From positions 1 through 26,221 of the IMG/VR virus record IMGVR_UViG_2617270943_000001: a DNA stretch of 26,221 nucleotides. One strand, 5' to 3'. Under the pieces are notes generated by a model. That model saw nothing but the letters and a program-made list of their open reading frames with translations. It was not told the DNA's origin and did no database searches. Source of the DNA: a virus (taxonomy: Duplodnaviria; Heunggongvirae; Uroviricota; Caudoviricetes). Below are positions 3,322 to 6,917 of the stretch, piece by piece (within the stretch, counting starts at the first letter, position 1; the number at the start of each line of letters is the position of its first letter). Made by a program: the position numbers and the translations under genes.

Positions 3322-4103
3322 GCTGCCACCTTCTGCTCAGTGGCTTTCTGTTTCAGGAATCCAAGAGCTTTCACTGCTTCGGCCTGTGTCAGTTCTGACG
3401 ATGCGCGAATGTCGCGGCGAAATATCTGGGAACAGAGCGGCAATAAGTCGTCATCCCATGTTTTATCCAGGGCGATCAGCAGAGTGTTAATCTCCTGCAT
3501 GGTTTCATCGTTAACCGGAGTGATGTCGCGTTCCGGCTGACGTTCTGCAGTGTATGCGGTATTTTCGACAATGCGCTCGGCTTCATCCTTGTCATAGATA
3601 CCAGCAAATCCGAAGGCGAGACGGGCACACTGAATCATGGCTTTATGCCGTAACATCCGTTTGGGATGCGACTGCCACGGCCCCGTGATTTCTCTGCCTT
3701 CGCGGGTTTTGAATGGTTCGCGGCGGCATTCATCCATCCACTCGGTAACGCAGATCGGATGATTACGGTCCTTGCGGTAAATCCGGCATGTACATGATTC
3801 ATTGTCCTGCTCAAAGTCCATGCCATCAAACTGCTGGTTTTCATTGATGATACGGGACCAGCCATCAACGCCCACCACCGGAACGATGCCGTTCTGCTTG
3901 TCAGGGAAGGCGTAAATTTCTTTCGTCCACGGATTAAGGCCGTACTGGTTGGCGACGATCAACAATGCGATGAACTGCGCATCGCTGGCATCACCTTTAA
4001 ATGCCGTCTGGCGAAGAGTGGTGATCAGTTCCTGTGGGTCGACAGAATCCATGCCGACACGTTCAGCCAGCTTCCCAGCCAGCGTTGCGAGTGCTGTACT
4101 CAT
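3318..4103 (-). CDS. bet: Single-strand annealing protein Bet (Red beta), 261 aa
   Basis: Translation [48 protein letters not shown]... matches lambda Bet; start/stop overlap with exo as in lambda. Confidence 0.95.
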
Positions 4104-4108
4104 CCGTT

Positions 4109-4405
4109 TTATACCTCTGAATCAATATCAACCTGGTGGTGAGCAATGGTTTCAACCATGTACCGGATGTGTTCTGCCATGCGCTCCTGAAACTCAACAT
4201 CGTCATCAAACGCACGGGTAATGGCTTTTTTGCTGGCCCCGTGGCGTTGCAAATGATCGATGCATAGCGATTCAAACAGGTGCTGGGGCAGGCTTTTTTC
4301 CATGTCGTCTGCCAGTTCTGCCTCTTTCTCTTCACGGGCGAGCTGCTGGTAGTGACGCGCCCAGCTCTGAGCCTCAAGACGATCCTGAATGTAATAAGCG
4401 TTCAT
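4109..4405 (-). CDS. gam: Gam, RecBCD inhibitor (short GamS-type form, 98 aa)
   Basis: Translation [37 protein letters not shown]...[10 protein letters not shown] matches lambda Gam from its internal start; AGGAG Shine-Dalgarno upstream of the ATG at 4405. Confidence 0.9.
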
Positions 4406-4481
4406 GGCTGAACTCCTGAAAATGGCTGTGAAAATATCGCCCGCGAAATGCCAGGCTGATTAGGAAAACAGGAAAGGGGGG

Positions 4482-4772
4482 TTAGTGATTCAGGCCGTTA
4501 CCGCGTCCGTCGAGAAAAACTTCCACGAGCAAATCACTGGTATAAGTGCGCTCGATGCCGCGATGCAGATAAAGCCGTCCGCGTAAATTAGCTGATGCAG
4601 TCCAGGTACCATCTTTGTGTTTGACCAGCATTCCTGGCATGACCGCGCCGCGATTAACGGTCTGTGTTCCGTAATGTTGATGAACCATAAAAACTCCTGC
4701 CCGTAAGCTGGGCTGCTGAACATATAGAGACTTCTGCGCATATTCAGGCGGTGGATGGCCGCCGGTTGTCAT
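4482..4772 (-). CDS. Hypothetical protein, first gene downstream of putative pL (96 aa from ATG at 4772; alternative TTG start at 4892 would add an Arg-rich N-terminus)
   Basis: ORF 4482..4892 on minus strand; the internal ATG at 4772 has a GAGG Shine-Dalgarno, whereas the TTG at 4892 has none. Not recognised as any lambda early protein. Confidence 0.35.
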   Translation of the reverse strand: MTTGGHPPPEYAQKSLYVQQPSLRAGVFMVHQHYGTQTVNRGAVMPGMLVKHKDGTWTASANLRGRLYLHRGIERTYTSDLLVEVFLDGRGNGLNH

Positions 4773-4959
4773 AACTAAGCCGCCTCGTTGAAGCGACTGA
4801 GGTATGAAATGTTGAGTTAATTTCAGCTGGTCACACCGACGTTCACGCGTCCGTTTCACCCCTCGCACTCCCCGAAGCCTGCTGAAATTCAAACTGCGGA
4901 TCTAAGCGGTCATCGCAACGGTGAATCAGGTAGTTGCCGTATCGTTGTGTTGTTGCGAT

Positions 4960-5040
4960 GAACTTATTTAAAACTATAGTTGTTTTATCGTCAACAACAA
5001 AAGTTGTTTTATTGGTTGTTTTAGATATAACTGGTTGTAT
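4960..5040 (-). promoter_or_regulatory. Putative pL promoter and OL operators
   Basis: Minus strand reads TTGTTGTTGACGATAAAACAACTATAGTTTTAAAT, almost identical to the pR module TGGTTGTTGACTAAAAACAACCATAGTTTTAATCT. -35 TTGACG at 4994..4989; several GTTGTT/AACAAC half-sites arranged as dyads. Confidence 0.55.
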
Positions 5041-5120
5041 TTAGGATGGATTTATTTTGTGACTTGAATCGCATAGCGATAACTGAAGCGAGGTTATGGT
5101 GGTTTTTTTAACGGTGTGTG

Positions 5121-5152
5121 TGATGAGGGGAGGGCAAAAGAAAACCCGGCAC
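5121..5152 (-). terminator. Putative rho-independent terminator downstream of cI
   Basis: Minus strand has a CCCGG-8 nt-CCGGG hairpin followed by TTTTCTTTT; lies between the cI stop and the pL region. Confidence 0.4.
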
Positions 5153-5283
5153 GGTGACCGGGATTCTTACGCCGTTAGGTAAAGATATTATTGCGGTGGC
5201 TTAATATTACTACCTAGAGCAAAGATAGGAATTAGTTCTTTACTGAATGAGCACAATGCCCAGTTGATAATTTTTAATTGGTA

Positions 5284-5973
5284 CTACCCATGCTTCCTAT
5301 ATGTCTGCGGCATGCTCCCAATAACCTTACCGAAGATGAACACCCGGTTCATCTCGTCTTTCTCGATCGGGTCCCACGGTGAGTAGCTTTTGTTATCAGA
5401 GATGACCAGCAGCTTATCCTTCATCATTTGCAGGCGCTTTACATGGGCTGTGTCGTCGTACAGAAACGCATAGATACCATCACCGTCGAAAGATTTAACT
5501 GTGATATCAACGAACAGCAGATCACCTGGTTCGATCGTTCCTGACATGCTGTCACCACGCACGTTAATGATGCGGATATTTTCCGCCTTCCTACCATCGA
5601 ACATGTGACGAGCATCGTCAAACGAGTACTCAACCGAGCGTAGAACTTCTACAAACTCACGGTTGATGACTCCCGGCCCAGCACTGACTTCTATATCAAG
5701 AACGTCAATCTTGAAGTATTTGGAATGGCTGACAGTTGATTGTATTGGTTGCACTGTACTGTCTGACATATTTCCAACGCCAGAAGATAACCATTCTGCG
5801 CGCACACCCAAAGCGTTCGCGATCTCCACGATTTTAGTTGTTTGATTAGCTTTCCCTGTTTCGATTTTCTGAATAGCAGCCTGGCTAACCCCGACCAAAT
5901 CCCCAAGCGCCTTTTGTGTAAGGCCTCGCGCTAATCTGGCTTCTTTAAGTCTTTCTGAGAGTGTTGTTTTCAT
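5284..5973 (-). CDS. cI: cI-type repressor: N-terminal HTH plus C-terminal S24 (LexA-like) autopeptidase, 230 aa
   Basis: HTH LTQKALGDLVGVSQAAIQKIE; Ala-Gly cleavage site (SAGPG); catalytic Ser (GDSM) and Lys (VKRL). Divergent from the cro-like gene across an operator-rich spacer. ATG at 5973 has no Shine-Dalgarno, consistent with a leaderless PRM transcript as in lambda. Confidence 0.85.
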   Translation of the reverse strand: MKTTLSERLKEARLARGLTQKALGDLVGVSQAAIQKIETGKANQTTKIVEIANALGVRAEWLSSGVGNMSDSTVQPIQSTVSHSKYFKIDVLDIEVSAGPGVINREFVEVLRSVEYSFDDARHMFDGRKAENIRIINVRGDSMSGTIEPGDLLFVDITVKSFDGDGIYAFLYDDTAHVKRLQMMKDKLLVISDNKSYSPWDPIEKDEMNRVFIFGKVIGSMPQTYRKHG

Positions 5974-5979
5974 AGTCCA

Positions 5980-6077
5980 AATGTACAACCAAGGTTTTAT
6001 TCCATCAAACGAAAATGGTTGTTGACTAAAAACAACCATAGTTTTAATCTTGATTCAAATTAACCACGGAGGTTGTT
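5980..6077. promoter_or_regulatory. OR operators with divergent pR and pRM
   Basis: Dyad TGGTTGTT-7 bp-AACAACCA (6017..6039) overlaps a -35 TTGACT (6022..6027), 17-bp spacer and -10 TAATCT (6045..6050). Further ACAACCA/GGTTGTT half-sites at about 5986 and 6071. GGAGG Shine-Dalgarno before the cro ATG. Confidence 0.6.
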
Positions 6078-6308
6078 ATGAACCCAGCTATCAAAACAGC
6101 GATCAATATCGTTGGTTCACAAAAGAAACTGGGCGCTGCTTGCGAAGTTTCACAGCAGGCCGTCTATAAGTGGCTTCACAACAAAGCAAAGGTATCCCCT
6201 GAACATGTCGGCAGCATTGTTACGGCTACTGGTGGAGTAGTGAAGGCATACCAGATTCGCACGGATCTTCCGAAGTTGTTTCCACACACCGAAAAGAACG
6301 CAGCTTAA
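6078..6308 (+). CDS. cro: Cro-like HTH repressor, 76 aa
   Basis: Small HTH protein (GSQKKLGAACEVSQQAVYKWL) transcribed divergently from cI off the pR-like promoter. Confidence 0.75.
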   Translation: MNPAIKTAINIVGSQKKLGAACEVSQQAVYKWLHNKAKVSPEHVGSIVTATGGVVKAYQIRTDLPKLFPHTEKNAA

Positions 6309-6320
6309 ATTTCCATTTCA

Positions 6321-6333
6321 CGCTCTTTAACAA
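6321..6333 (+). promoter_or_regulatory. boxA-like element (candidate nutR component)
   Basis: CGCTCTTTAACAA lies 13 nt after the cro stop and matches the boxA consensus (lambda CGCTCTTA, rrn GCTCTTTAACAA). No convincing boxB hairpin seen downstream. Confidence 0.4.
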
Positions 6334-6377
6334 TAAGCAATCAACTTAACAGTCAATTCAAACTAAAGGAGTCAATT

Positions 6378-6917
6378 ATGCAACCACTTCCATACCAACA
6401 GACTAGCGGATTTAGCCCGACTGCGGTGATAAATCGTTCTCAAACAAAACAGGTGCCAGGCCACGAAAAAATCCGTGATGCCGTCCGCGCCTGGTCGGCT
6501 GTAGATAATCAGGATGTCGTTGCCACACTCATTGTGAATGAGTATCGGGAGCAGGGCGGCGGCACCATCGATTTCCCTGATGATGTCAGCCGTGCACGCC
6601 AGAAGCTGTTCCGCTTCCTCGATAACAAATTCGATTCTGAAAAATACCGAAATAACGTGCGTGAACTGACCCCGGCAATTCTGGCGGTACTAACGCTGGA
6701 ATATCGCGGTTACCTGGTTGAGCAGGATAGCTTCATGGCCAGGTTGGCTGAAATGGAAAAGGAACTCAGTGAGGCAAAACAGGCTGTCATTCTCAACGCA
6801 CCACGCCACCAGAAACTGAAGGAAATTAGTGAAGGTATTGTATCGATGTTTCGTGTGGACCCAGATCTGGCTGGTCCATTGATGGCGATGGTTACTACCA
6901 TGCTGGGGGCGATATGA
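6378..6917 (+). CDS. YdaT-family protein in the cII position, 179 aa
   Basis: Conserved blocks YREQGGG and ELTPAILAVLTLEYR resemble Rac prophage YdaT as I recall it; located between cro and O; AGGAG Shine-Dalgarno. Confidence 0.65.
   Translation: MQPLPYQQTSGFSPTAVINRSQTKQVPGHEKIRDAVRAWSAVDNQDVVATLIVNEYREQGGGTIDFPDDVSRARQKLFRFLDNKFDSEKYRNNVRELTPAILAVLTLEYRGYLVEQDSFMARLAEMEKELSEAKQAVILNAPRHQKLKEISEGIVSMFRVDPDLAGPLMAMVTTMLGAI

Follow-up and report, generated by a model that had tools for sequence, protein, structure and literature searches.

A predicted 14-bp operator type in the immunity region of a lambdoid Escherichia coli prophage

In phage lambda, three operators lie 23–24 bp apart, and the −10 hexamer of the repressor promoter pRM stands 6 nt before the leaderless cI ATG (TAGATT-N6-ATG). 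The repressor and Cro of phage 434 have a recognition-helix sequence in common. The 434 operators are 14 bp long, with 5+5 contacted bp around 4 central bp that are not contacted (reference operator ACAATNNNNATTGT), and the operator centre tunes affinity (PMC1636474).

We describe a region of a 26,221-bp stretch of viral DNA (positions 1 to 26,221 of IMG/VR record IMGVR_UViG_2617270943_000001; the whole stretch is termed the window). The region is very probably the switch that controls immunity in a lambdoid E. coli prophage, one in which cI and cro diverge around a tripartite right operator region (OR), the early-left promoter carries a left operator region (OL) and the repressor sites have the form ACAAC-N4-GTTGT. 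The 434 repressor is the closest solved homologue of the N-terminal domain of the window cI, and the operators of the two phages have the outer ACAA...TTGT and the 5+4+5 layout in common (PMC1636474).

This immunity region is found in 1521 of 5426 complete E. coli genomes (28%), O157:H7 included. The original prediction of a distinct immunity specificity is supported as regards the classical lambdoid phages, in that the N-terminal domain and OR are common to only six sequenced phages, all recent records. A literature search covering related phages, RdgA operators and ACAAC/GTTGT operators found no description of these operators.

Genes and proteins of the region

The cI and cro genes diverge, and three 14-bp sites fall within the 104-bp intergenic region. 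A second operator region with the same site type is at the early-left promoter, where O_L1 and O_L2 flank the TTGACG −35 hexamer, upstream of kil, gam, bet and exo. The features, in order of coordinates, are:

4966..4971, minus strand: pL −10, TTAAAT, 17-nt spacer, predicted start near A4959; read from sequence
4970..4983, minus strand: O_L1, predicted 14-bp operator ACAACTATAGTTTT, 1 mismatch, between pL −35 and −10; window scan
4989..4994, minus strand: pL −35, TTGACG; read from sequence
4994..5007, palindromic, no strand: O_L2, predicted operator, perfect 14-bp ACAACAAAAGTTGT, 1-bp overlap with pL −35; window scan
5025..5038, minus strand: possible O_L3, ACAACCAGTTATAT, left half alone at consensus; sequence reading
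5145..5162, minus strand: intrinsic terminator downstream of cI, CCCGG..CCGGG then TTTTCTTTT; terminator scan
5284..5973, minus strand: cI, 229 aa, HTH_3 N-terminal domain and S24 autocleavage domain; Pfam and PDB search
5980..5985, minus strand: pRM −10, TACATT, 6 nt before the cI ATG
5985..5998, no strand: O_R3, predicted operator ACAACCAAGGTTTT, 1 mismatch, in the pRM spacer, centre −18.5 from the cI ATG; window scan
6003..6008, minus strand: pRM −35, TTGATG, 17-nt spacer, adjoins O_R2; TTG invariant in the anchored alignment
6009..6022, no strand: O_R2, predicted operator ACGAAAATGGTTGT, 2 mismatches, both in the pRM-side half, centre −42.5 from the cI ATG; window scan
6022..6027, plus strand: pR −35, TTGACT, in the 9-bp O_R2–O_R1 spacer; read from sequence, kept in relatives
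6032..6045, plus strand: O_R1, predicted operator ACAACCATAGTTTT, 1 mismatch, between pR −35 and −10; window scan
6045..6050, plus strand: pR −10, TAATCT, 17-nt spacer, predicted start near 6057; read from sequence
6063..6076, no strand: candidate fourth site ACCACGGAGGTTGT, 1 mismatch, with the cro Shine-Dalgarno GGAG as its centre; window scan
6078..6308, plus strand: cro, 76 aa, YdaS / P22-Cro-like family; Pfam

The repressor has 229 aa (5973..5287 plus the stop codon), not the 230 given originally. Its Pfam matches are Peptidase_S24 (1.2e-18) and HTH_3 (5.4e-13), and its translation contains the recognition helix VSQAAIQK together with Ala98-Gly99, Ser142 (GDSM) and Lys179 (VKRL), which predict autocleavage. 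In a PDB search with phmmer, residues 5–68 aligned ungapped with residues 2–65 of the 434 repressor (E 4.5e-9), with 24 identities in 64 positions as counted by eye. Cro matches YdaS_toxin in Pfam (6.6e-16), with P22_Cro under the family cutoff; its best PDB match, the Cro protein 3bd1, is weak (E 0.0096). Cro and cI are of different fold families, yet the recognition helix of Cro, VSQQAVYKW, is a near copy of that of cI.

Within this group of phages the Cro helix is VSQQAVYKW or VSQAAVQKW. In a sister group whose cI helix is VAQPTIWR, the Cro helix is VAQPTVWRW and the O_R3 position carries ATACG-N4-CGTAT. Because the two helices and the half-site co-vary, and because the arms are kept while centres and spacers diverge, we read the half-sites as the signature of a protein–DNA interface and not of shared descent alone.

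Definition of the operator

The pL and pR promoter–operator modules had been described as near-identical, and they are: minus strand 5000..4966 (TTGTTGTTGACGATAAAACAACTATAGTTTTAAAT) and plus strand 6017..6051 (TGGTTGTTGACTAAAAACAACCATAGTTTTAATCT) agree in about 28 of 31 aligned columns, as counted by eye, and differ by a single 1-nt gap (roughly 90% identity). A repeat search returned a 19-nt arm pair (4968–4986 and 6029–6047, 95% complementary) and a 29-nt pair (72%). In both modules the −35 hexamer (TTGACG at pL, TTGACT at pR) lies within a GTTGTT...AACAAC inverted repeat, as originally noted, with spacing N7 at OR (6018–6036) and N8 at OL (4979–4998). The extra half-sites said to flank both regions are real (GTTGT at 4944, 4949, 5015, 5034, 5963 and 6072); in all, GTTGT/ACAAC pentamers number seven in 4944–5038 and five in 5963–6076, against a window-wide background of about 0.2 per 100 bp.

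Most likely, a repressor dimer binds 14-bp sites with the consensus ACAAC-N4-GTTGT. As with 434, one helix-turn-helix would read each outer 5 bp, and the base sequence of the central 4 bp would go unread. Scanning the window yields five sites with at most one mismatch to this consensus, where a first-order Markov model expects 0.87; all five fall in OL or OR. The only perfect site, O_L2, compares with an expectation of 0.035. Relatives that share the recognition helix VSQAAIQK, among them prophages of other enterobacterial genera, provided 35 OR regions; 12 of these belong to Pectobacterium-like loci, so that the regions cannot be counted as phylogenetically independent. In them the inward N4 arrangement was found 25 times without a mismatch and 73 times when one mismatch was allowed, and all other inward spacings between N0 and N12 together gave one perfect pair. 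An alignment of 14 representatives with <85% identity, anchored on the cI ATG alone, carries about 2 bits on ACAAC and GTTGT, 0.2–0.8 bit on the four central columns, and no conservation beyond the 14-mer.

OL behaves likewise. Relatives in Kosakonia, Enterobacter, Serratia, Morganella, Pantoea, Rosenbergiella and Erwinia have a perfect O_L2 and an O_L1 of the form ACAAC-N4-GTTTT, 23–24 bp apart, with TTGAC between them and with operator centres that vary from phage to phage. Among 80 IMG/VR copies of the same immunity type, polymorphism falls almost entirely in centres and spacers and is rare in the arms. This architecture and its conservation are direct observations. If the 14-mer is the binding unit, GTTGTTGACTAAAAACAAC with its outer halves scrambled should bind repressor weakly or not at all.

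The recognition sequence proposed originally stands in part: the GTTGT/ACAAC pentamer is retained as the probable repressor half-site, but the outward GTTGTT-N7/8-AACAAC dyad is not the unit, its spacing differing between OL and OR. We consider it improbable that one dimer occupies this dyad, enclosing the −35 hexamer so that operator and −35 coincide. The long inverted repeat is real at OR (9-bp arms, 6015–6039) and the dyad recurs at OL and in the OR regions of relatives (counted from pentamer to pentamer, N9 11 times and N10 three times). However, its spacing is 1 bp off between OL and OR of the same phage, and also among relatives; such a change displaces the half-sites by 3.4 Å and 36°, a shift that a dimer of fixed geometry could accommodate only poorly. 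The dyad also leaves unexplained O_L2, the isolated perfect 14-mers at the pRM position of relatives, the 434-type homology and the conserved outer halves GTTTT (6041–6045) and ACGAA (6009–6013). Since the inward N4 unit is constant in spacing and the outward spacing is variable, we read the dyad as the inner half-sites of adjacent O2 and O1 operators; it is because the pR and pL −35 hexamers sit in the O2–O1 spacers that these strong inner halves resemble one dyad.

Two further readings look away from the 14-mer. The pentamers might be promoter or spacer sequence left by duplication of a module, with the repressor binding elsewhere or otherwise, for example at direct repeats of AGTTGTTTTAT. 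The overall pL/pR similarity fits such a duplication, and a direct-repeat family of this kind, D1, does exist (4972–4988, 4996–5012 and 5830–5846), yet we hold this reading to be very unlikely: the arms are kept across genera as centres and spacers diverge, and the half-site switches together with both recognition helices in the sister group. A lambda-like 17-bp palindrome, AAAAC-N7-GTTTT, would take in AAAACAACCATAGTTTT at 6029–6045 and AAAACAACTATAGTTTT at 4986..4970; both O1 regions of the window do read AAAAC...GTTTT with 5-bp complementary arms, which the arms of an inverted repeat (I2) cover. We give this palindrome scarcely any credence, as the 3 nt before ACAAC vary in relatives (gatt, aatg, aaat, taaa), the anchored alignment ends its conservation at the 14-mer, and neither O_L2, O_R3 nor the perfect sites of relatives fit the pattern. 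It is the unconserved flanks in relatives that lead us to reject both this palindrome and the D1 repeats in favour of the 14-bp site.

With the 14-bp site as the unit, operator centres fall at 6038.5, 6015.5 and 5991.5 in OR (23 and 24 bp apart) and at 4976.5 and 5000.5 in OL (24 bp apart). The central GC fraction is 0.18–0.25 (A/T-rich) in the O1 sites and O_L2 against 0.50 in O_R3. Relatives have an ACAAC-N4-GTTTT site of the O_L1 kind 23–24 bp past O_L2, and the arms of O_L1 are invariant in 28 OL haplotypes; the O_L2 position holds a perfect palindrome with a varying centre in 15 relatives; and O_R1 is kept as ACAAC-N4-GTTTT with an A/T-rich centre in 19. Most relatives have a perfect ACAAC-N4-GTTGT at the O_R3 position. 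The position and spacing of O_R2 are also kept, and one group (L024, L025, L035 and L055) swaps its weak and strong halves with the site unmoved; having both mismatches in one half, O_R2 could act as a half-site relying on cooperativity. Neither the window scan nor the OL haplotypes contained a complete 14-mer for a third OL operator, only lone half-sites, of which 5015–5019 is polymorphic in the population and 5034–5038 is mostly kept; the status of O_L3 is accordingly uncertain.

The promoter-proximal half of O1 deviates from the consensus by G-to-T (GTTTT), and this deviation is conserved across relatives. Reading it as supplying the first T of the −10 hexamer fits pL (TTAAAT from operator position 13) and fails at pR (TAATCT from position 14).

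Counted from the predicted pR start, the candidate fourth site is near +12; its centre and that of O_R1 are 31 bp apart. In 17 relatives the same place has a 14-mer that departs from the consensus at one position or none (six distinct sequences, differing in the position of the mismatch), and no polymorphism was seen in the window site among 21 OR haplotypes. The separation from O_R1 amounts to three helical turns.

Promoters and the cI transcript

A consensus promoter scan called none of pR, pL and pRM, whose −10 hexamers match consensus at 3–4 of 6 positions; it made one call (plus strand, 4953–4980), and shuffled sequences give more (mean 3.7). We therefore assigned promoters by positional conservation in relatives. 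All relatives keep TTGAC in the O2–O1 spacer, and the sequence 6 nt past their pL −10 position is CATCAGCAGGACG, which we take to be that of the lambda pL +1 region. At the pR −10 offset relatives have TATTCT, TATATT or TAATAT. A hairpin at 6015–6039, flagged as terminator-like on both strands, was read as the inner halves of O_R2 and O_R1 and not as a terminator. No Rfam family reached threshold in the whole window. Over its first 240 nt, the predicted pL transcript folds no more stably than shuffles do (z = 0.26); its one conspicuous feature is an 8-bp stem at the 5′ end.

The window pRM reads TTGATG-N17-TACATT-N6-ATG. As had been noticed, the cI start has no Shine-Dalgarno sequence, the 6 nt before the ATG (5973, minus strand) being TGGACT. 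The pattern TTGnnn-N17-TAnnnT-N6/7-ATG recurs in 30 of 31 unique relatives with no Shine-Dalgarno-like tetramer (6 nt from TAnnnT to ATG in 27 cases, 7 nt in three), and since this geometry is so conserved, the cI mRNA made from pRM is probably leaderless, in agreement with the earlier suggestion.

From the arrangement of sites we infer binding, cooperativity, activation and transcript ends as follows. Repressor on O1 and O2 would occlude pR and pL; on O_R2, centred at −42.5 and adjoining the pRM −35, it would probably activate pRM, whose transcription would give the leaderless cI mRNA. O_R3, inside pRM, would provide negative autoregulation and is the likely target of Cro. Induction would follow from RecA-stimulated self-cleavage by the S24 domain.

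Pectobacterium loci and the described phages

Certain Pectobacterium loci are chromosomal and are not the immunity switch of a complete phage. They encode an N-terminal domain 68–75% identical to that of the window cI, with an identical helix VSQAAIQK, and their pRM, of the same leaderless geometry, bears an ACAAC-N4-GTTGT without mismatch. TTGACA and ACAACTATAGTTTT, the sequence of the window O_L1, lie upstream of a Mor-family gene. No cro gene was found in loci L003–L014. We presume these loci to be RdgA/RdgB, an S24 repressor controlling a Mor-family activator, on the strength of an annotation match and one paper (PMC13566846), and not of a sequence comparison with the published proteins.

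It is possible, if somewhat doubtful, that two proposals hold jointly: that the fourth operator at 6063–6076 is functional, its non-contacted centre being the cro Shine-Dalgarno, and that in Pectobacterium the repressor–operator module now serves, after domestication, as an SOS-responsive, RdgA-like switch of a Mor-family activator. If so, repressor or Cro at the fourth site would act as a further roadblock or build a higher-order complex of a kind not described for lambda, 434 or P22, and the RdgA operator would be given by prediction, with ACAACCTAGGTTGT and ACAACTATAGTTTT as candidate targets.

An operator definition with coordinates makes superinfection immunity groups predictable from sequence. 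The half-sites ACAAG/T, ACAAC and ATACG, each with its repressor and Cro helix, form a natural specificity series for the 434-type helix-turn-helix. We see no conceptual gain here beyond the lambda/434 paradigm.

The region appears to work like that of 434 but is not imm434. The recognition helices differ (TTQQSIEQ in 434, VSQAAIQK in the window), with Gln28 kept, Gln29 replaced by Ala and Gln33 by Lys, and operator position 5 is an invariant C, unlike in 434. The window region thus does not have the helix and operator set of imm434 specificity, and the 10 records that match both the N-terminal domain and OR do not include one of phage 434. The 434 Cro has a fold paralogous to the repressor N-terminal domain, whereas the window Cro is YdaS / P22-Cro-like and no homologue of it; in both phages, Cro and repressor nevertheless have a recognition-helix sequence in common. 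Further differences from 434 are the conserved GTTTT half in O1 and the possible fourth site over the cro Shine-Dalgarno.

The likeness to lambda lies in divergent cI and cro genes, three operators 23–24 bp apart, a pRM −10 hexamer 6 nt before a cI ATG that is probably leaderless, and an S24 cleavage domain. O_R3, O_R2 and O_R1 are near −19, −42 and −66 from the pRM start, the same distances as in lambda. The lambda operators are 17 bp long, in contrast to the 14 bp of the window sites, and the N-terminal domains are unrelated in sequence. Unlike lambda, the window phage has no rexAB between cI and pL and no N gene between pL and kil, and the position of cII is taken by a YdaT-family protein.

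The probable operator unit and its predicted promoters

Three independent lines of evidence, from the window, from its relatives and from the proteins, point to the 14-bp inward palindrome ACAAC-N4-GTTGT, and not an outward GTTGTT/AACAAC dyad, as the recognition unit of this repressor. The 26 kb contain one perfect site (4994-5007) and four with one mismatch (starting at 4970, 5985, 6032 and 6063), and at ≤1 mismatch none lies outside OL and OR; simulated first-order Markov sequences gave a chance expectation of 0.87 such sites per window.

Predicted operators, promoters and genes of the immunity region
4970-4983, O_L1, predicted operator
4994-5007, O_L2, predicted operator
5985-5998, O_R3, predicted operator
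6009-6022, O_R2, predicted operator; two mismatches, filling the series centred at 6038.5, 6015.5 and 5991.5
6032-6045, O_R1, predicted operator
6063-6076, candidate fourth operator, ACCACGGAGGTTGT; one mismatch from consensus, its non-contacted centre being GGAG, the Shine-Dalgarno of cro
4994..4966, minus, predicted pL: TTGACG (4994..4989)-N17-TTAAAT (4971..4966)
6022-6050, plus, predicted pR: TTGACT (6022-6027)-N17-TAATCT (6045-6050)
6008..5973, minus, predicted pRM: TTGATG (6008..6003)-N17-TACATT (5985..5980)-N6-ATG (5973)
5973..5284, minus, cI: 229 aa, HTH_3 N-terminal domain and S24 peptidase domain
6078-6308, plus, cro: YdaS / P22-Cro-like family

The original prediction of near-identical pL and pR modules was borne out: both 35-mers are present (5000..4966, minus; 6017..6051, plus), matching in ∼28 of 31 alignment columns with one 1-nt gap, and a repeat search returned a 19-nt arm pair, 95% complementary. 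GTTGT/ACAAC pentamers number seven in 4944-5038 and five in 5963-6076, versus 58 across the whole 26 kb. Both -35 hexamers, TTGACG and TTGACT, do lie within GTTGTT...AACAAC. The half-site had been read correctly and its pairing had not: the outward spacing is N8 at OL and N7 at OR, and in OR regions of relatives it is split between N9 and N10 (pentamer to pentamer). With the 14-mer as the unit, the outward dyad consists of the right half of O2 and the left half of the neighbouring O1, and the -35 hexamer occupies the 9-10-bp spacer that separates these two operators.

The weak half of O_R2 (ACGAA) is on its pRM-proximal side and is itself conserved. O1 sites always have GTTTT instead of GTTGT, for which we found no account that fits both promoters. 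At OL no full third site is recognizable, only lone half-sites at 5015-5019, which is polymorphic, and 5034-5038. Within cI, an operator-like 14-mer with two mismatches, ACGATTTTAGTTGT (5828-5841, codons for TTKIV), has the same weak half as O_R2, and Pectobacterium loci carry a one-mismatch version at the same codons (L003-L014, position 2633); it may be a coincidence of codons for a conserved peptide.

The site at 6063-6076, which lies past the predicted pR start at a distance of 31 bp from O_R1, may act as a fourth operator. Seventeen relatives preserve it at ≤1 mismatch, the mismatch position varying, and we put its being functional at about even odds.

A generic promoter scan called none of pR, pL and pRM, which are assigned here from conservation. 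With TGGACT directly before its ATG, cI lacks a Shine-Dalgarno, as had been noted, and the leaderless cI mRNA proposed from this is supported by comparison: TTGnnn-N17-TAnnnT without a Shine-Dalgarno-like tetramer precedes the ATG in 30 of 31 unique relatives, at 6 nt (27) or 7 nt (3). Lambda pRM likewise has TAGATT-N6-ATG, its mRNA beginning at the AUG. The centres of O_R3, O_R2 (which adjoins the -35) and O_R1 lie at -18.5, -42.5 and -65.5 from the cI ATG, which we take to be close to the lambda layout. Some relatives have CATCAGCAGGACG, the sequence of the lambda pL +1 region, after the pL module; this places the predicted pL start of the window near A4959.

Conservation of half-site and recognition helix

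One genome per species was scanned with the N-terminal 75 residues of cI, returning 78 loci; about 35 retain the recognition helix VSQAAIQK at a domain identity of only 50-84%. In the OR regions of these ∼35 relatives the inward ACAAC-N4-GTTGT has 25 perfect occurrences and 73 at ≤1 mismatch, versus a single perfect pair for all the remaining inward spacings between N0 and N12. An alignment of 14 representatives (<85% identity), anchored solely on the cI ATG and without motif selection, gave the consensus TTGa......AcAACc...GTTGTA..TT......ATG, with arms at ∼2 bits and the four central columns at 0.2-0.8 bit. Downstream of cI, relatives from seven genera have a perfect palindrome and, 23-24 bp on, ACAAC-N4-GTTTT with TTGAC in between, which is the O_L2/-35/O_L1 module of the window; the centres vary from phage to phage. 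Among 80 IMG/VR copies of the same immunity type, polymorphisms fall in centres and spacers, almost never in arms.

Among solved structures the cI N-terminal domain is best matched by 434 repressor (E 4.5e-9, with no gaps over 64 residues) and 434 Cro. In a sister group, whose cI helix is VAQPTIWR, the O_R3 position is occupied by ATACG-N4-CGTAT: the geometry is unchanged, the half-site is not. The Cro helix is nearly that of the partner cI: VSQQAVYKW or VSQAAVQKW with VSQAAIQK, and VAQPTVWRW with VAQPTIWR. Since both helices and the half-site switch between the two groups, helix and half-site co-vary in two proteins. The sister group (L029-L050; Enterobacter, Kluyvera, Citrobacter and others) carries ATACGCAAGCGTAT ∼32 bp upstream of cI. 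Two records, L024 (titled Chryseobacterium sp. 18061) and L030 (a Parachlamydiaceae MAG, 1652-bp contig), place enterobacterial-type cI/cro regions under unrelated phyla, likely through contamination or mis-binning.

Gene order and spread of the immunity region

The region is part of a lambdoid E. coli phage; bases 4400-6400 share 99.4-99.7% identity with the Escherichia phages PhiR34_1 and Turner. The order is minus-strand exo-bet-gam-kil, pL/OL, cI, OR, cro, a YdaT-family protein in the cII position, then O and P. The N-terminal domain plus OR is common to only six phage records, each with a recent accession number; the same segment occurs in 1521 of 5426 complete E. coli genomes and at least 573 IMG/VR contigs. 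Our literature searches found no paper on the operators of this immunity region.

Between pL and kil (4482-4960) there is no N-like gene, the sole family match being Kil (residues 60-136 of the ORF at 4482-4892). An 8-10-bp stem (4961..4952 paired to 4919..4910) opens the predicted pL transcript, whose 240-nt leader folds no more stably than shuffles and has no Rfam match.

From the cI stop to OL (5008-5283) the window is empty apart from a terminator, whereas lambda has rexAB there. Otherwise near-identical prophages (H3-H5, L159) carry cargo in this space: an ASCH-domain protein and a 353-aa hypothetical protein in O157:H7 EC4115 (L159 4028-5444), and genes annotated GevT/GevA in PhiR47_2. 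The space resembles an insertion hotspot for morons or defence genes. In the EC4115 prophage (NC_011353 2969103-2981423) an IS1203-family element interrupts replication gene P, after which come ren, emrE and ybcK, as in the right arm of the window; the repressor may thus persist in defective prophages. Phages Lambda_4C10, 4A7, 1W, 3W and D2 (H6-H13) are ∼92% identical to the window from gam into the C-terminal part of cI (as far as ∼5736), with no match to its cI N-terminal domain or OR; this indicates that recombination within cI, at the boundary between its domains, has exchanged the immunity specificity.

Proposed switch and comparison with known systems

Sites, spacing, conservation, domain content and promoter geometry were observed here, and from 434 and lambda we infer the regulatory steps. 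Repressor dimers on O1 and O2 would occlude pR and pL, and on O_R2 would activate pRM; O_R3 would serve autorepression and be the site that Cro prefers. Prophage induction would follow from RecA-stimulated cleavage at Ala98-Gly99 (Ser142, Lys179).

In Pectobacterium, chromosomal loci (L009 of Pectobacterium carotovorum, positions 3590-3660 and 2476-2489; also L003-L014) code for a repressor whose helix, VSQAAIQK, is the same as here, and have perfect ACAAC-N4-GTTGT at a leaderless pRM-like promoter. There TTGACA and ACAACTATAGTTTT, which is identical to the O_L1 of the window, lie upstream of a Mor-family gene (Pfam 4.4e-40). These look like the RdgA/RdgB pectin-lyase regulatory pair, which if true predicts the RdgA operator. 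The operator finding for the window is solid and of use for annotation and for study of HTH specificity, though no surprise to a specialist.

In 434, OR and OL each have three 14-bp sites. Every site has 5+5 contacted bp, a conserved outer 4+4 and, at its centre, four bp that are not contacted but modulate affinity (reference operator ACAATNNNNATTGT; PMC1636474), A/T-rich centres giving higher affinity. Centre GC fractions of 0.18 (O_R1), 0.22 (O_L1) and 0.25 (O_L2) versus 0.50 (O_R3) hint at a 434-like ranking of affinities. O_L2, ACAACAAAAGTTGT, the only operator site in the window with ACAA in both halves, also fits the 434 rule ACAA-N6-TTGT, and its centre AAAA ranks best for the 434 geometry (Table 1 of PMC1636474); 434 repressor might therefore bind O_L2 alone among the window sites. 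The region is not a member of imm434, from which its recognition helix, half-site position 5 and Cro family all differ; by analogy, it appears to work like a 434-type switch in a lambda-like promoter layout.
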